Assembly (NCBI GenBank): GCA_016787045.1
Contig: JAEUVA010000008.1
Span: forward strand, 113,743-177,742
Direction of reading: 5' to 3'
DNA length: 64,000 nt
Source: Chitinophagales bacterium
GTDB taxonomy: Bacteria > Bacteroidota > Bacteroidia > Chitinophagales > LD1
Under the pieces are notes generated by a model. It was not told the origin of the DNA. It saw only the letters and a program-made list of their open reading frames with translations, and did not search any database. Within the stretch, counting starts at the first letter, position 1; every line of letters begins with the position of its first letter. The position numbers and the translations under genes were made by a program. This document shows, piece after piece, positions 26,431 to 38,328 of the stretch.

Positions 26431-29400
26431 ATGAAAAAAATTTTACTCGCTGCTTGTATTTTGATAGTAGCAATTGTTGCAAAATCGCAATGCGTTACCA
26501 ACGTAAATTTTAACCCGTGGATTAAAGTGGGGAACCCCGGAAATGGGAATTGGGTTGTACAAGGGGGGGGGACAAGTGTTCACCAAACTGTTAATGGCGA
26601 CCCTACATTTTTTGTCACTCCATTTGATATGATGAATGTACACATCAGCGGTACATTTCGCAGCACTGATACAGATGATGATTTTATGGGCTTTGTATTT
26701 AGCTTTTTGAACCCAATGGGAGCTACAGATACTTTTGATTGTTGGCTGTACGATTGGAAGCAAGATAATCAAGGTGGTGCGTCTAAAGGAATGTCGCTGA
26801 ACAGATGCTTAGGAGTATTGCCACCATCAACCTACACACCACAGTTTTGGAACCATCAGAATAACGCTGCCTTTACCTGCGTACAAAACAACTTTGGCTC
26901 AGCCGGATGGGGGTGGATGACCAATCATGACTTTGACCTCTACCTGAGTTACAGCAATGCCACTATTTATATTGACGGCAATTTAATTTTTGACCAAAAT
27001 GATTGTTTCAAACCCGGGCGTTTTGGCTTCTATAACCTTTCACAAAGAGATTGTTATTACAGCAATTTCCAATACGAACTTTTTATTGATTTTGAATATA
27101 GCCCAAGGGCGTGTTTGGGTCAATCTAGCCCGTTTAACTTTGTACCCGCGTGCGTTACAAATTTTTTGCCGCAGTATCAATCCATGACCTGGAATTTTGG
27201 TGATGGATCGCCTCCGGTTACTGTAAATAACCCCACACTTGCCACTGTAAACACACAACACACCTATACTACCCCGGGTAATTACACAGTTACGTTAAGC
27301 GTAGTTGACTATAATGGATGTACAGCCACGGCATCTCACGCGGTGCAAGTAGCTGCGCCTATTACACTTGCCCCTACATACAATCAACCGCCATGCAATG
27401 GTGGCACTAACGGCAGCATAACCGTAGCCCCATCTGGTGGCTTTGGCAATTATTCTTATCTATGGAATGGCGGCCCCCTAATTGGCCCTACTTTGGTGGG
27501 TGTTGGCGCTGGTACTTATGTGGTTTCTGTTACAGACGGTACTTGCAATACTACCGCACAATACACACTCAATCAGCCACCACCACTAACAGCAACCACT
27601 TCACACATTGACGCGCCATGTGCCGGTAATGGGTCAGCTACAATAGCCATTACCGGAGGAACACCGCCTTACAACAACGTAACTTGGGCAGGTTTTCCGG
27701 GCTATACTGTTTCGCTTCCTGCGGGTACTTGGATAGCTAATTTCAATGATGCTAACGGATGCTCAGCACTGCTTCAATACACCGAAACAATTACTCAACT
27801 TCCTTGCGGAATTACATCTAGTGTTACCAAAACAAATGTTACCTGTTTTGGGGTCAACAATGGAACAGCCACGCTTACCGTTACCGGTGTAACCGGTACG
27901 GCAAACATCACATGGAGCAATGGGCAAACCGGTGCTACCGCTACCAACCTTGCACCGGGTACATACACGTATAACTTTTCGGATGCTAACCCCGGTCACG
28001 CATTTTCGGGAACAGTTACTATTACCGGGCCAACAGCAGGTATGGTGGTAACATTAAGCACCATCGGTATAACATGTGCGGGAGCAAATAATGGACAAGC
28101 CATTGCCTCAGTCAGTTCCGGAGGTACACCACCATATACGTATGCGTGGAGCGGAGGAGGACCTAACAACCCTGTCAAAACTGGTCTGGCACCTGGCCCC
28201 GTTACAGTTACCGTTACTGACAATAACGGCTGTATAGGCACCGCCACAGGTACAGTATCGGCTATACCATCTTTAACGGCCACACTTACGGCAGTAATGG
28301 ACAGCTGCTATCACAGCGGTAAAGGGAGTGTAACTGCAACTGTTACCGGTGGAAGTCAACCTTATACTTATGCTTGGAATAACTTCACTACTCAAGCCAT
28401 CAACGCTAATGTAATAGGAGGTACTTATACAGTAACCGTAACAGATAACAACGGTTGCTCAACTACTGGCACAGCAACGGTGAACACCCCTACAGTTTTG
28501 GGTTACACATACACCCGTCAAGATGTTTTGTGCCATGGTCAAAGTACCGGGTCGCTTAATTTTAATGTAACGGGTGGTACCGCACCCTACAATTTTGTTT
28601 GGACACCTGCAACTGTATCTGGTAGTAATCCCACGGGACTTGACACAGGTATTTACAATGCCACAATTACAGATGCATATGGGTGTGTCCGCTTTTTTGA
28701 AGATACTATTTACCAGCCCGCTGCGCCACTTAATGCTACTACTTCTCACACTGATGTTACATGCCCCGGAGCAAGCAATGGAACTATAACCATTACTGTG
28801 AGTGGTGGTACTGACCCTTACACAATTTTGGGCAATAATATTCCCACTGCGGGCACTATTGTTATTCCTAACCTTCCGGCAAATACATATGCGGGTAACC
28901 TGGTTGACTCTAACGGATGTACCGTGGCTTTGAGCGAAACTATTACTGAACCTGCAGCACAAAGTTTATCGCTCACTTCAACAAATGTTACTTGCAATGG
29001 CTACAATGATGGTACTGCAACTGCCAATTTTGTAAATGCAACTGGCACTGTACAATACAACTGGGCCCCCGGAGGTATCCTACCGGCTAATCGCACGGGT
29101 TTATCTGCAGCTACTTATTCAGTAACCGGAACTGATGCAAATGGTTGTACTGTAACCGGCAGTACTACTATTACAGAACCCACAGCCATTTCAGTGCAAC
29201 AGGCAATTGTTCCGGTAAGTTGTTTTGGAGGAAATGATGGTAGCATTACCCTTACTTCATCGGGTGGTGCTGGTACTCCTTTTGGATATACATGGAATCC
29301 AAATGTGAGCAGTAGTAACTCTGCCACTTCATTAACAGCAAACACGTACAGCATTACTGTAACCGATGCCGCTAACTGTTCTGTTCTTTCTACCGCTACA

Positions 29401-31104
29401 GTTACAGAACCTCTTCAGCTAAGTGTAACTTCCGCAGCACAAGATGTGCAATGTTTTGGCGGTACTGATGGTAGTATTACATTAACAGTTAGTGGTGGCA
29501 CCACTAACTACAATTATACTTGGAGCCCTAATGTAAGCACATCTAACTCTGCTTCTTCGCTGAATGCAGGTCAATATGACTATACGGTAACTGATGCAAA
29601 TAATTGTACCGTAATAGGCAGCAATACGCTCACTACCCCAGCCAGTGCAGTAGCCGTTGCTCCTACACAAACAGACCTTACTTGCTATCAGGTTCCAACA
29701 GGCACTGCAATGGTAAATGCTTCGGGTGGAACAGGAGCATTCAGTTACGTTTGGAGCCCTAACGTAAGCACTACTGATAACGCAAGTTCTTTATTAGCCG
29801 GCATCTATAATGTTACCGCTAGTGATGCTAATAATTGCAGCATTACTACATCATTTACAATTACAGAACCCACACAATTAACACTCACAGAATCGCACAC
29901 AAATAACCTTTGCTTTGGCGATGCTAATGGTACAATTGATGTTACAGCCAATGGCGGTACAGGCACCTACAACTACCAGTGGACTCCTAATGTAAGTACT
30001 GGTACTTCTGCTAGTTTACTTTCTGCAAACACCTATAGCATATCTGTGCAAGATGCCAACAATTGCGTGGCCAGTGTATCTGTGGTGATTACCTCTCCCG
30101 CACAGATTAACCTGAATGCTACTGCCACAAATGCCATCTGCTTTGGAGAATCTAATGGAACCATTACCGCGAATGCAGCAGGTGGCACTACACCTTATAG
30201 CTACGGTGCAAGCCCTGATGGGGTTAACTTCCAGACTTCACTTACCGGACAATTCAACAATCTTGCTGCAGGAAATTATACTGTTGTAGTTGCCGATGCT
30301 AACCTTTGCTCAGCAACTACTAATGTAGTAATTTCAGAACCTACAGTATTGGCAGCCAATTCGCTAACAACAGACGTTAGTTGTTTTGGATACACAGATG
30401 GCACAATCAATACTTCTGCCAACGGTGGTACTCCTTCTTATACTTACTCTATATCAGGAGGTTCATCTAATAACACTGGTACATTCACTTCACTAAGCCC
30501 GGGCAACTATACCGTACTGATTACCGATGCCAACGGTTGTACAACAAGCAATACTGCAATAGTTAATGAGCCACTGCAAGTGTTGCTTAGCGTTACGCCA
30601 GATTCTATCGTTACCGATATTGGCAATTCTATACAGATTAACACAACTACCAATCAACCCGGCACAGTAACATACAACTGGCAACCACCTACAGGTTTAA
30701 GTTGCTATGATTGTGCATCACCTGTATTCAGTTCAAACTATTCCACTGTTTATACCGTTACAATTACAAACTCCAACGGATGTAGCAATAGTGCGCAGAT
30801 TACAGCGGTTGTAGTACCAAATTACACGGTGTTTATTCCAAACAGTTTTACCCCCAATGCAGATGGAGCCAACGATGTATGGCAAATTTTTGGAAACATA
30901 CCGGGGCTAAAGCAAATGAATGTGATGGTGTTTAATCGGATAGGTGAGAAAGTATTTGAAAGCAACGATATCAACTTTGGATGGGACGGAAACTACAAAG
31001 GAGCACCCTCACCAAACGGAGTTTATACTTACGTGGCCAGTTTTGTTTGGCTAAATAACCACAGCGATAGTAACTACAAAGGAAGTGTTACCTTAATCAG
31101 ATAG
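26431..31104 (+). CDS. T9SS type B sorting-domain protein: thrombospondin-C-like lectin domain + PKD + 14 SprB repeats + gliding-motility C-terminal domain
   Basis: 1557 aa with signal peptide. Residues about 21-216 carry NWVV..G....HQTVNGDP...SGTF....DDDFMGFVF...W...GRFGFYNLSQRDCYYSNFQYE. PKD-like WNFGDGS...YTTPGNYTVTL. Fourteen C.G...G.I.....GG..PY.Y.W repeats. C-terminal FIPNSFTPNADGANDVW...GVYTYV. Confidence 0.9.
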   Translation: MKKILLAACILIVAIVAKSQCVTNVNFNPWIKVGNPGNGNWVVQGGGTSVHQTVNGDPTFFVTPFDMMNVHISGTFRSTDTDDDFMGFVFSFLNPMGATDTFDCWLYDWKQDNQGGASKGMSLNRCLGVLPPSTYTPQFWNHQNNAAFTCVQNNFGSAGWGWMTNHDFDLYLSYSNATIYIDGNLIFDQNDCFKPGRFGFYNLSQRDCYYSNFQYELFIDFEYSPRACLGQSSPFNFVPACVTNFLPQYQSMTWNFGDGSPPVTVNNPTLATVNTQHTYTTPGNYTVTLSVVDYNGCTATASHAVQVAAPITLAPTYNQPPCNGGTNGSITVAPSGGFGNYSYLWNGGPLIGPTLVGVGAGTYVVSVTDGTCNTTAQYTLNQPPPLTATTSHIDAPCAGNGSATIAITGGTPPYNNVTWAGFPGYTVSLPAGTWIANFNDANGCSALLQYTETITQLPCGITSSVTKTNVTCFGVNNGTATLTVTGVTGTANITWSNGQTGATATNLAPGTYTYNFSDANPGHAFSGTVTITGPTAGMVVTLSTIGITCAGANNGQAIASVSSGGTPPYTYAWSGGGPNNPVKTGLAPGPVTVTVTDNNGCIGTATGTVSAIPSLTATLTAVMDSCYHSGKGSVTATVTGGSQPYTYAWNNFTTQAINANVIGGTYTVTVTDNNGCSTTGTATVNTPTVLGYTYTRQDVLCHGQSTGSLNFNVTGGTAPYNFVWTPATVSGSNPTGLDTGIYNATITDAYGCVRFFEDTIYQPAAPLNATTSHTDVTCPGASNGTITITVSGGTDPYTILGNNIPTAGTIVIPNLPANTYAGNLVDSNGCTVALSETITEPAAQSLSLTSTNVTCNGYNDGTATANFVNATGTVQYNWAPGGILPANRTGLSAATYSVTGTDANGCTVTGSTTITEPTAISVQQAIVPVSCFGGNDGSITLTSSGGAGTPFGYTWNPNVSSSNSATSLTANTYSITVTDAANCSVLSTATVTEPLQLSVTSAAQDVQCFGGTDGSITLTVSGGTTNYNYTWSPNVSTSNSASSLNAGQYDYTVTDANNCTVIGSNTLTTPASAVAVAPTQTDLTCYQVPTGTAMVNASGGTGAFSYVWSPNVSTTDNASSLLAGIYNVTASDANNCSITTSFTITEPTQLTLTESHTNNLCFGDANGTIDVTANGGTGTYNYQWTPNVSTGTSASLLSANTYSISVQDANNCVASVSVVITSPAQINLNATATNAICFGESNGTITANAAGGTTPYSYGASPDGVNFQTSLTGQFNNLAAGNYTVVVADANLCSATTNVVISEPTVLAANSLTTDVSCFGYTDGTINTSANGGTPSYTYSISGGSSNNTGTFTSLSPGNYTVLITDANGCTTSNTAIVNEPLQVLLSVTPDSIVTDIGNSIQINTTTNQPGTVTYNWQPPTGLSCYDCASPVFSSNYSTVYTVTITNSNGCSNSAQITAVVVPNYTVFIPNSFTPNADGANDVWQIFGNIPGLKQMNVMVFNRIGEKVFESNDINFGWDGNYKGAPSPNGVYTYVASFVWLNNHSDSNYKGSVTLIR

Positions 31105-37960: not shown

Positions 37961-37989
37961 AAAAAAAACGGCTCGCGTTGGCAAGCCGT
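37961..37989 (-). terminator. Rho-independent terminator (copy 1) after tRNA-like element A
   Basis: Minus strand: CGGCTTGC-CAAC-GCGAGCCG stem-loop followed by T8. Identical to copy 2. Confidence 0.6.
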
Positions 37990-37992
37990 ATG

Positions 37993-38065
37993 TGCACCCG
38001 AAGGGAGTCGAACCCCTAACCTTCCCGACCAAAGTCGGGATGCTCAACCCAGCTAAGTTAAAGGC
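37993..38065 (-). pseudogene. tRNA-like element A: diverged 5' part + 18-nt anticodon-less hairpin + T arm/3' acceptor identical to tRNA-Arg
   Basis: The 3' 30 nt plus terminator are identical to the tRNA-Arg gene (62/62 over 37961-38022 vs 38066-38127). The acceptor strands do not pair properly. The anticodon arm is replaced by TCCCGAC-TTTG-GTCGGGA. Confidence 0.5.
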
Positions 38066-38094
38066 AAAAAAAACGGCTCGCGTTGGCAAGCCGT
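38066..38094 (-). terminator. Rho-independent terminator (copy 2) after tRNA-Arg
   Basis: Minus strand: 8-bp stem, CAAC tetraloop, then T8, immediately 3' of the tRNA. Confidence 0.7.
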
Positions 38095-38097
38095 ATG

Positions 38098-38171
38098 TGC
38101 ACCCGAAGGGAGTCGAACCCCTAACCTCTTGATCCGTAGTCAAGTGCTCTATCCAGTTAAGCTACGGGTGC
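38098..38171 (-). tRNA. tRNA-Arg (anticodon ACG)
   Basis: Hand-folded 74-nt cloverleaf: GCACCCG/CGGGTGC acceptor, GCTT-AACTGGATA-GAGC D arm, CTTGA-CTACGGA-TCAAG anticodon arm, AGGGG-TTCGACT-CCCTT T arm. CCA not encoded. Confidence 0.9.
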
Positions 38172-38191
38172 TTATACCTTTTTATCCGTCC

Positions 38192-38246
38192 CCCCTAACC
38201 TTCCCGACCCAAGTCGGGATGCTCTATCCAGTTAAGCTACGGGTGC
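38192..38246 (-). pseudogene. tRNA-like fragment C: exact 5' 27 nt of tRNA-Arg + 18-nt anticodon-less hairpin + start of variable/T region, then truncated
   Basis: 38220-38246 is identical to 38145-38171. Hairpin TCCCGAC-TTGG-GTCGGGA at 38202-38219. No T arm or 3' acceptor follows. Confidence 0.5.
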
Positions 38247-38328
38247 TTTTAAAAAGGAGCGCAAATATAGTTTTTAGTATCAAATTTGAAACCACTTCCC
38301 TTAATTTTTCATTTTTAGATTCGGGCGA

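Follow-up and report, generated by a model that had tools for sequence, protein, structure and literature searches.

A tRNA-Arg gene between two partial copies

We analysed a 64,000-nucleotide stretch of Chitinophagales DNA (contig JAEUVA010000008.1, positions 113,743 to 177,742; hereafter the window), in which a tRNA-Arg(ACG) gene on the minus strand, unit B, lies between two partial tRNA copies, units C and A, each carrying a perfect GC-rich hairpin in place of the anticodon arm (Table 1). An earlier note, made from the letters of this DNA, had described these three elements, and all the parts that it named are present. We report here on the locus, on the recurrence of its hairpin at tRNA genes of other Bacteroidota, and on a predicted GIY-YIG nuclease gene that accompanies the hairpin in some of them.

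The 5′ half of unit C (38220-38246) is identical to the corresponding part of unit B (38145-38171) at 27 of 27 positions, and unit A, from the variable loop through the terminator (37961-38022), matches unit B (38066-38127) at 62 of 62. Taken overall, B and A form a direct repeat of 74 nt with 95% identity, and the D-arm segment of unit A agrees with that of unit B at about 16 of 21 positions (repeat family D2, 63%). The gap between unit B and unit A, in which the unit B terminator lies, is only ~30 nt, and terminator detection called both terminators. The two hairpins, H1 in unit C and H2 in unit A, are each placed between GAGCA and AGGTT, that is, exactly between tRNA positions 26 and 44. 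As RNA, H2 has a predicted folding energy of -12.6 kcal/mol (z = -3.25). The 18-nt hairpin pattern occurs at two places in the window, both of them at the tRNA, where shuffled sequences give an expectation of 0.00; the window shows no avoidance of TCCCGA/TCGGGA (10 observed vs 8.2 expected). The -7 promoter consensus of Bacteroidota is TAnnTTTG, and by its match to this published consensus TATATTTG, upstream of unit C, is a putative promoter element. A sigma-70 promoter scan of the locus gave no match.

ARAGORN made a single tRNA call at the locus, tRNA-Arg(ACG) at 38097-38171 on the minus strand, which is unit B, and the Rfam tRNA model scored unit B at 66.5 bits. With the same model at a permissive setting unit A reached 17.4 bits (threshold 29), and unit C was undetected even then. 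The YrlA model gave unit A 15.6 bits, below its gathering threshold of 69, and Rfam found no tmRNA at the locus. Only unit B is called as a tRNA, in line with the earlier note's description of it as the canonical gene. In units C and A a stem of 7 bp closes a loop of 4 nt, where an anticodon arm has a 5-bp stem and a 7-nt loop with the anticodon, and a paired 7-bp acceptor stem is absent from both: unit A lacks the 5′ strand, and unit C lacks the T arm and the 3′ strand. Unit B is, presumably, the functional, working gene; units C and A are pseudo-tRNA pieces, to be annotated as pseudo-tRNA remnants. We also considered a frameshift-suppressor tRNA or a tRNA with an 8-nt loop, and rejected this idea, as position 33 is not U, ARAGORN makes no such call, and the loops at other loci vary from 3 to 8 nt without a consensus.

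Table 1. Features of the tRNA-Arg locus, listed 5′ to 3′ along the minus strand (window coordinates)
Feature	Position	Strand	Remarks
Predicted -7 box TATATTTG	38262-38269	-	16 nt upstream of unit C; matches TAnnTTTG
Unit C, 5′ half	38220-38246	-	tRNA-Arg positions 1-27 (5′ acceptor strand, D arm)
Hairpin H1, TCCCGAC-TTGG-GTCGGGA	38202-38219	-	anticodon-arm place of unit C
Unit C, stub AGGTTAGGGG	38192-38201	-	10 nt of variable loop and T stem; unit C ends here
A-rich 20-nt spacer	38172-38191	-	unlike tRNA; within the 75 bp that the plain allele lacks
Unit B, intact tRNA-Arg(ACG)	38098-38171	-	ARAGORN and Rfam
Unit B, intrinsic terminator	38066-38094	-	9-bp stem, CAAC loop, then T8
Unit A, left part	38041-38062	-	GCC and decayed D-arm segment, without 5′ acceptor strand
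Hairpin H2, TCCCGAC-TTTG-GTCGGGA	38023-38040	-	anticodon-arm place of unit A
Unit A, 3′ half	37993-38022	-	variable loop, T arm and 3′ acceptor strand, as in unit B
Second terminator copy	37961-37989	-	as unit B terminator; native downstream flank follows

An independent assembly, Logan contig L012 (SRR12425364), contains unit C, the spacer and unit B. Two further contigs, L009 and L011, end ~30 nt inside the B/A repeat, breaks that would be expected because this repeat is longer than the assembler's k. The junction from B to A is seen in the window's assembly only. An assembly artefact is unlikely to be the source of the structure.

Close relatives carry a plain allele at the same site. Contig L008 (SRR30909894), which encodes a GpsA 100% identical to that of the window and has near-identical flanks, contains a single plain tRNA-Arg, and L001 and L002, two contigs from one strain with 99% GpsA identity, have the plain allele as well. 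The single tRNA of L008 and L001 has the sequence of unit B, and the box TATATTTG is kept in both, there directly upstream of the tRNA. In a three-way alignment the filled allele equals the plain one plus 75 bp (unit C and the spacer) and 105 bp (unit A); elsewhere the alleles differ by only two substitutions, and the downstream flank is that of L008. Presence and absence of the units is thus polymorphic at one site among close relatives, with the window and L012 filled and L008, L001 and L002 plain. That an otherwise near-identical strain has the plain allele agrees with the earlier reading of the identity to unit B as recent duplication or conversion. The alignment rules out one simple insertion leading from plain to filled; that route needs either two insertions (75 and 105 bp) or a hairpin-bounded, tRNA-containing segment replacing the 17-nt anticodon arm. 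The 27-bp C/B and 74-bp B/A repeats could also recombine to give the plain allele, so the polarity of the change can be read either way. The comparison of this interval across relatives, to which the earlier note had looked, was informative for the near-identical strains with their plain alleles, but not further out: relatives at ~80% GpsA identity have another gene order, with no orthologous interval.

The host belongs to Bacteroidota, the best named GpsA homologues coming from metagenome-assembled genomes of Chitinophagales. Neighbouring genes encode a TonB-dependent receptor with a CarboxypepD_reg domain and a DUF3822 protein; among the eight open reading frames (ORFs) tested across 31-46 kb there is no integrase or transposase, and they are housekeeping genes. 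A very long ORF of 1557 aa (26431-31104, plus strand) lies upstream of the tRNA locus.

The hairpin at other tRNA genes

We scanned one genome per species (596 Gb) for the pattern GCATCCCGAC-N3-8-GTCGGGAAGG, which has 20 specified bases. The scan yielded at least 118 loci against ~6 expected by our own base-count estimate; the counts of loci that follow are among the matches listed. Nearly all listed matches come from Bacteroidota, namely Chitinophagaceae, Ferruginibacter, Cyclobacterium, Algoriphagus, Saprospiraceae, Flavobacteriales and Balneolaceae, and the stem TCCCGAC/GTCGGGA is present beside real tRNAs in more than 100 Bacteroidota species. The recurrence of the same stem in pseudo-tRNA contexts at so many loci of other genomes bears out the suggestion that the hairpin, in the place of an anticodon arm, is no random scar.

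At the Bacteroidota loci the hairpin occupies the anticodon-arm position, the D and T arms come from many tRNA types, and the loops have 3-8 nt. A real tRNA on the same strand lies within 600 nt in 86 of the 118 listed loci. Most of these partners are tRNA-Arg (60 of 86; 32 Arg-ACG and 28 Arg-TCT), with Thr (11), Val (4) and Pro (4) among the others, and the unit lies upstream of its partner in 48 loci and downstream in 38. Across 113 units, those upstream resemble the neighbouring tRNA more on the 5′ side (0.90) than on the 3′ side (0.72), and those downstream more on the 3′ side (0.90) than on the 5′ side (0.75), with a control value of 0.62; this asymmetry of half copies is that of the window. 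Truncated stubs like AGGTTAGGGG follow the hairpin in upstream units of other loci, and tandem arrays are common (L019, L074, L034, L057, L073), with periods of ~85-360 nt. No Rfam family matches the hairpin units.

In 4-5 of the 6 loci where one tRNA has hairpins on both sides, the loops of these hairpins match exactly or almost so. Otherwise the loops differ between loci; those of C and A are near-identical to each other and unlike those found elsewhere. The anticodon of the neighbouring tRNA occurs inside the loop 12 times, vs 6.1 ± 2.1 by permutation (about twofold), so that some loops, at least, look like decayed anticodon loops within a replaced stem. Two further ideas about the hairpin were rejected. 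A hypermutable loop does not account for eight aligned orthologous upstream units, whose 3′ stub is divergent too; the loop is merely unconstrained. The arms are also not the ends of a larger, interrupted insertion, as a half-site search of all loci gave only point-mutated degenerate copies.

Extra copies of the hairpin are found within the T loop. In the downstream unit of L122 (~160-185) the T loop holds a copy with the loop CTTTG of the upstream units, and the T loops of L132 (Christiangramia sp. BOM4; 360-390, 945-975 and 1500-1530) hold a related hairpin, TCCCGAA-GCTGG-TTCGGGA. A second GC-rich hairpin lies in the T loop of many units, also at L042, L087, L100, L013, L080 and L123. As judged from these sequences, the hairpin itself may be copied as a unit.

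Two strains of Cyclobacterium xiamenense have unequal upstream units (L020, 2646-2835; L090, 6215-6234): one strain has three, with the loops TTTTTAG, TTTTGG and TTTTGG, and the other has one, with TGCTGG. Such differences within one species indicate fast turnover. Complete units are miscalled by ARAGORN at L057 (4023-4269), L074 (3329-4219), L024 (4226-4302), L072, L089 and L130, under labels such as 'tRNA-Stop(tta)' (a stop suppressor), 'tRNA-Asp(atc)' or undetermined, and such units are probably behind some false tRNA annotations in Bacteroidota.

Outside Bacteroidota, GCATCCCGAC-N6/7-GTCGGGAAGG occurs in non-tRNA surroundings at L053 (~707-726), L092 (7886-7905), L107 (6921-6940) and L115 (2008-2027), one of them from Planctomycetota. 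The frame common to these four loci, CCTCACCCC...CCCTCTCC-loop-GGAGAGGGG-hairpin-GGGTGAGG, resembles a three-way junction. Another frame is shared by two loci from Acidobacteriota, L038 (7507-7527) and L048 (671-691), and L048 contains three hairpin variants within 250 nt. No Rfam family matched the non-Bacteroidota loci, and no GIY-YIG gene was found near them.

A GIY-YIG gene linked to the hairpin

Clustering of the ORFs at hairpin loci gave one non-syntenic family, which ends directly 5′ of the hairpin on the same strand; the other enriched neighbour families are syntenic housekeeping genes. Pfam assigns this family to the GIY-YIG catalytic domain (PF01541, E down to 4e-18). The predicted nuclease has ~85 aa and belongs to the bacterial Slx1/UPF0213 type; among solved structures BH0048 (UPF0213, PDB 1ZG2; E 3.7e-6) is the closest, and no specific NCBIfam model matches it. 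By tblastn, the gene or a pseudogene of it is present in at least 24 hairpin loci, nearly all of which have the order upstream units, tRNA, ORF, hairpin, 3′ half. The 3′ end of the gene runs into the pseudo-tRNA, the D-arm-like segment of the ORF-bearing relatives encoding the C-terminus of the GIY-YIG protein. Locus L127, for example, consists of tRNA-Arg(ACG), a terminator, an 83-aa ORF, the hairpin, a 3′ half and a terminator, and its ORF ends with AGC TCA ACT GAA TAG inside the D-arm segment. L025 has an upstream unit, tRNA-Val, the ORF and a downstream unit, and L122 has several upstream units, tRNA-Arg(ACG), the ORF, a downstream unit and then a second copy of the ORF; both show the complete order of upstream unit, tRNA, terminator, ORF, hairpin and 3′ half. 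The ORF and hairpin unit are repeated in tandem at L019 (~10 copies) and at L100, L132 and L133 (3 copies each). The earlier note had seen no integrase or mobile element near the window's locus; the statement on integrases stands for the ORFs tested, but that on mobile elements misleads: the architecture matches that of the GIY-YIG-bearing loci, and the window's locus would be a copy of theirs without the ORF.

The link is also found from the protein side. A search returned 120 homologues, Bacteroidota proteins of the 'GIY-YIG nuclease family' with 80-115 aa, and at least 28 of the 120 end in ...STE followed by the stop, or in ...HPD. These endings are the translations of the D arm and of GAG CAT CCC GAC, so these ORFs, too, run into a pseudo-tRNA. 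In a reverse test we fetched four loci via diverse GIY-YIG homologues, a choice unbiased for the hairpin. All four contained a tRNA (Val, Val, Ala and Met), the ORF and the 3′ part of a pseudo-tRNA, in which a GC hairpin lies where the anticodon arm would be; the hairpins are TCCCGAT-GCA-ATCGGGA, TCCCGAT-TAC-ATCGGGA, TCCCGCAC-TTC-GTGCGGGA and, with the most distant protein, CCGCC-TGA-GGCGG.

The pattern-selected loci share the basal five base pairs of the stem, TCCCG/CGGGA, with three of the four unbiased ones. These pairs are constant despite a mutual identity of only 38-60% among the adjacent nucleases and despite differing types of host tRNA. At pairs 6 and 7 there are 18 compensated double changes, ~6 broken pairs and 4 wobble pairs. 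Since disabling an anticodon arm needs no particular sequence, we infer that the hairpin is most likely a cis-acting recognition element, which would fold in RNA, in single-stranded DNA or as a cruciform; the co-located predicted nuclease is the obvious candidate for its partner.

Some ORF-bearing loci differ in detail. At the tRNA-Met variant L134 (900-1500) the nuclease ORF reads through a remnant of the anticodon loop, its stop codon TGA being the loop of CCGCC-TGA-GGCGG, and three downstream units without the ORF come before the unit that bears it. At L127 (740-775) and L122 (~470-510) the nuclease start codon lies just after or within the T-run of the tRNA terminator, so that expression would depend on terminator read-through; tight, low expression would fit what we expect of a homing-endonuclease gene. 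At L055 (1033-3060; Chitinophaga sp. CF118) tRNA-Arg(TCT) is followed by a 1.8-kb islet with ORFs of 74, 96 and 174 aa, then by a second, directly repeated copy of the tRNA 3′ end that has a terminator of its own, and lastly by a hairpin pseudo-tRNA unit; the islet has the look of a small integrated element adjoining the proposed cassette. A search for phage carriage in a viral contig collection gave 0 matches, and two window-specific junction patterns, used to find ORF-bearing relatives of the window's tRNA type in JGI metagenomes, also gave 0.

A proposed nuclease cassette, its rivals and its relatives

We consider it probable, at about 60%, that this locus belongs to a selfish cassette resident at Bacteroidota tRNA genes, either as a relic without the ORF or as a non-autonomous copy. 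The full cassette would consist of one or more upstream units (each a tRNA 5′ half, hairpin, stub and spacer), the intact tRNA with its terminator, the ~85-aa GIY-YIG gene with the D-arm-like segment as its last codons, the hairpin, and finally a tRNA 3′ half with a terminator. Of this the window would retain the two ends with their hairpins (units C and A) and, between them, the intact tRNA-Arg(ACG) gene (unit B); by class, the element would be a free-standing GIY-YIG selfish element at tRNA genes, and the window's copy a degenerate one. In the mechanism that we propose, modelled on phage SegB as the nearest worked example, the predicted nuclease would break DNA at or near tRNA genes or the hairpin. 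The cassette would be copied as the break is mended on a cassette-bearing template, the tRNA halves providing the homology. Repair in register would amount to transfer, and repair out of register to expansion into tandem arrays of upstream or downstream units. The plain allele of the sister strains would result when the direct repeats, of 27 bp (C/B) and 74 bp (B/A), recombine; such events would remove the ORF or the units. Rather than just breaking up the anticodon arm, the hairpin would be a cis-acting site, specific in sequence, for the nuclease or for its expression. As an end product, the window's locus would have kept both ends and lost the ORF, with the intact tRNA retained because it is needed. 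A broader proposal is tentative, and we think it more doubtful than the reading of the locus itself: that hairpin pseudo-tRNA and minimal Slx1-like nuclease form an undescribed class of self-copying element, in which the nuclease, specific for structure or for sequence, may act on its own hairpin (as cruciform, single-stranded DNA or RNA), recombination copies and amplifies the cassette in tRNA genes while the intact tRNA is kept, and copies without the ORF are mobilised in trans.

Several observations weigh against the cassette reading. By tblastn this family's GIY-YIG gene is absent from the whole window, and ~80% of the hairpin loci lack a GIY-YIG gene within the 8 kb fetched; with most loci free of the ORF, the hairpin units could be primary and the nuclease gene a secondary parasite. 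No filled/empty pair turned up for any ORF-bearing locus. The survey was seeded with the exact stem, which makes the invariance of the stem partly circular outside the four unbiased loci, and the 20 specified bases also occur in the non-tRNA contexts of Planctomycetota and Acidobacteriota, with no GIY-YIG gene. The terminators of units B and A are identical, which fits in-situ duplication or allelic exchange better than a distant donor. Finally, were the anticodon arm the target, the intact internal tRNA would stay cleavable.

The predominance of loci without the ORF could also be expected if the hairpin units were host elements, such as a site for protein binding, a signal by which tRNA operon transcripts are processed or stabilised, or a decoy for a tRNA-Arg-binding factor. 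The GIY-YIG genes would then be later parasites, much as homing endonuclease genes parasitise introns, and the window would have an element without its parasite. We hold this to be unlikely, although a good deal is consistent with it: compensatory changes at pairs 6 and 7 accompany an otherwise conserved stem; replacement of exactly positions 27-43 preserves a tRNA-like geometry; the units of L057 and L074 are complete cloverleaves for ARAGORN; upstream units lie between the putative promoter and the tRNA and would be co-transcribed; and the bias for tRNA-Arg is strong. However, most units are truncated, lacking the 5′ acceptor strand or most of the 3′ half, degenerate copies are common, and no Rfam family matches. 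Moreover, units are present or absent in near-identical strains and vary in copy number within a species, as in Cyclobacterium xiamenense (L020 vs L090). Partial tRNA genes beside full ones are also the usual signature of integrated elements (PMC9897764), and the islet of L055, bounded by a tRNA 3′ fragment and adjoining a hairpin unit, recalls it, so one might think of a tyrosine-integrase island in tRNA-Arg that was later deleted and left partial copies. For the window we find such a classical att-site duplication very improbable, as the earlier note had done. No integrase-bearing island lies in the short gap between B and the 3′ copy, the ORFs tested around the locus include no integrase or transposase, and the recurring structure comes with a GIY-YIG gene, not with an integrase. 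Integrase recombination also yields no 5′-half copy, yet unit C duplicates the 5′ 27 nt, and a foreign hairpin replaces the anticodon arm in both copies.

Still less credible is a reading without wider meaning, as a decaying duplication private to this locus or as an error of metagenome assembly. Several contigs do break inside the repeat, and the junction from B to A is known from the window only, but C, the spacer and B are confirmed by the independent assembly, an identical stem occupies the same structural position in more than 100 other species, and the loop is nearly the same in C and A but unlike that of other loci. The earlier note had also pointed out that C and A together would make a tRNA-shaped RNA lacking an anticodon. 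A split RNA of this kind, joined in trans or by read-through, is a reading to which we give next to no credence. The 5′ acceptor strand of C (GCACCCG) does complement the 3′ strand of A (CGGGTGC), and both pieces have the same hairpin. However, that hairpin is complete in each half, so the halves do not pair with each other, and a terminator lies between them. Unit A has no 5′ acceptor strand, unit C is cut after 10 nt of its 3′ half, neither passes a tRNA or Y-RNA model, and both are absent from near-identical strains. Other loci have units on one side only or in unequal numbers, and the outer halves at L025 are not complementary.

Known systems resemble the cassette in part. YrlA and other Y RNAs are, like our units, tRNA-like without a functional anticodon. 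In YrlA the ends of the RNA form the Ro-binding stem; the units differ from this in having a closed hairpin and ends on the acceptor side. REP/BIME elements and mitochondrial GC clusters are likewise short, GC-rich, perfect hairpins that recur, and the additional T-loop copies at L122 and L132 add to the likeness. Unlike these elements, the hairpin is not dispersed within the window, where both of its copies lie at the tRNA, and in the loci seen it lies only inside tRNA-like sequence. The attL and attR ends of integrative elements have, as the window does, a partial tRNA beside the full gene on the same strand (PMC9897764), but the window has neither island nor integrase, it contains a 5′-half copy and a hairpin in the anticodon-arm place, and at other loci the units form arrays.

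The phage GIY-YIG endonuclease SegB, encoded in tRNA clusters, cleaves inside tRNA genes, and its breaks lead to homologous-recombination-dependent tandem amplification of tRNA genes together with segB, in arrays that collapse without selection (PMC13096335). The cassette is like SegB of T4 and T6 in that a GIY-YIG gene lies among tRNA genes, and the SegB arrays resemble those of L019, L100, L132 and L133 as well as the presence/absence polymorphism of the window. However, the phage protein SegB is larger and has a DNA-binding region, whereas the cassette proteins are ~85-aa catalytic domains of the Slx1/UPF0213 branch on bacterial chromosomes; SegB loci contain no hairpin-substituted pseudo-tRNA, and the window copy contains no nuclease gene. 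The branch of BH0048 comprises bacterial Slx1-like, minimal, stand-alone GIY-YIG proteins without auxiliary domains, predicted to act in break repair (PMC1564403); that paper does not connect this UPF0213/Slx1-like family with tRNA genes, with pseudo-tRNAs or with any conserved hairpin. Our literature search, which covered searchable texts only and so gives no proof of absence, returned no description of hairpin-substituted pseudo-tRNAs or of a link between tRNA genes and this family of GIY-YIG nucleases in Bacteroidota, and the cassette is apparently undescribed.

For annotation of the window, only B among units B, C and A counts as a gene. The importance of the finding rests on the family that was uncovered rather than on the window's copy. 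If the cassette reading is true, the stand-alone Slx1/UPF0213 GIY-YIG proteins, so far without an established function, would gain a genetic context and a candidate substrate for the nuclease in a defined hairpin of 5-7 bp. A class of spurious or odd tRNA annotations in Bacteroidota would also be explained, and nuclease-driven amplification of tRNA segments, so far seen with SegB in phages, would extend to bacterial chromosomes.

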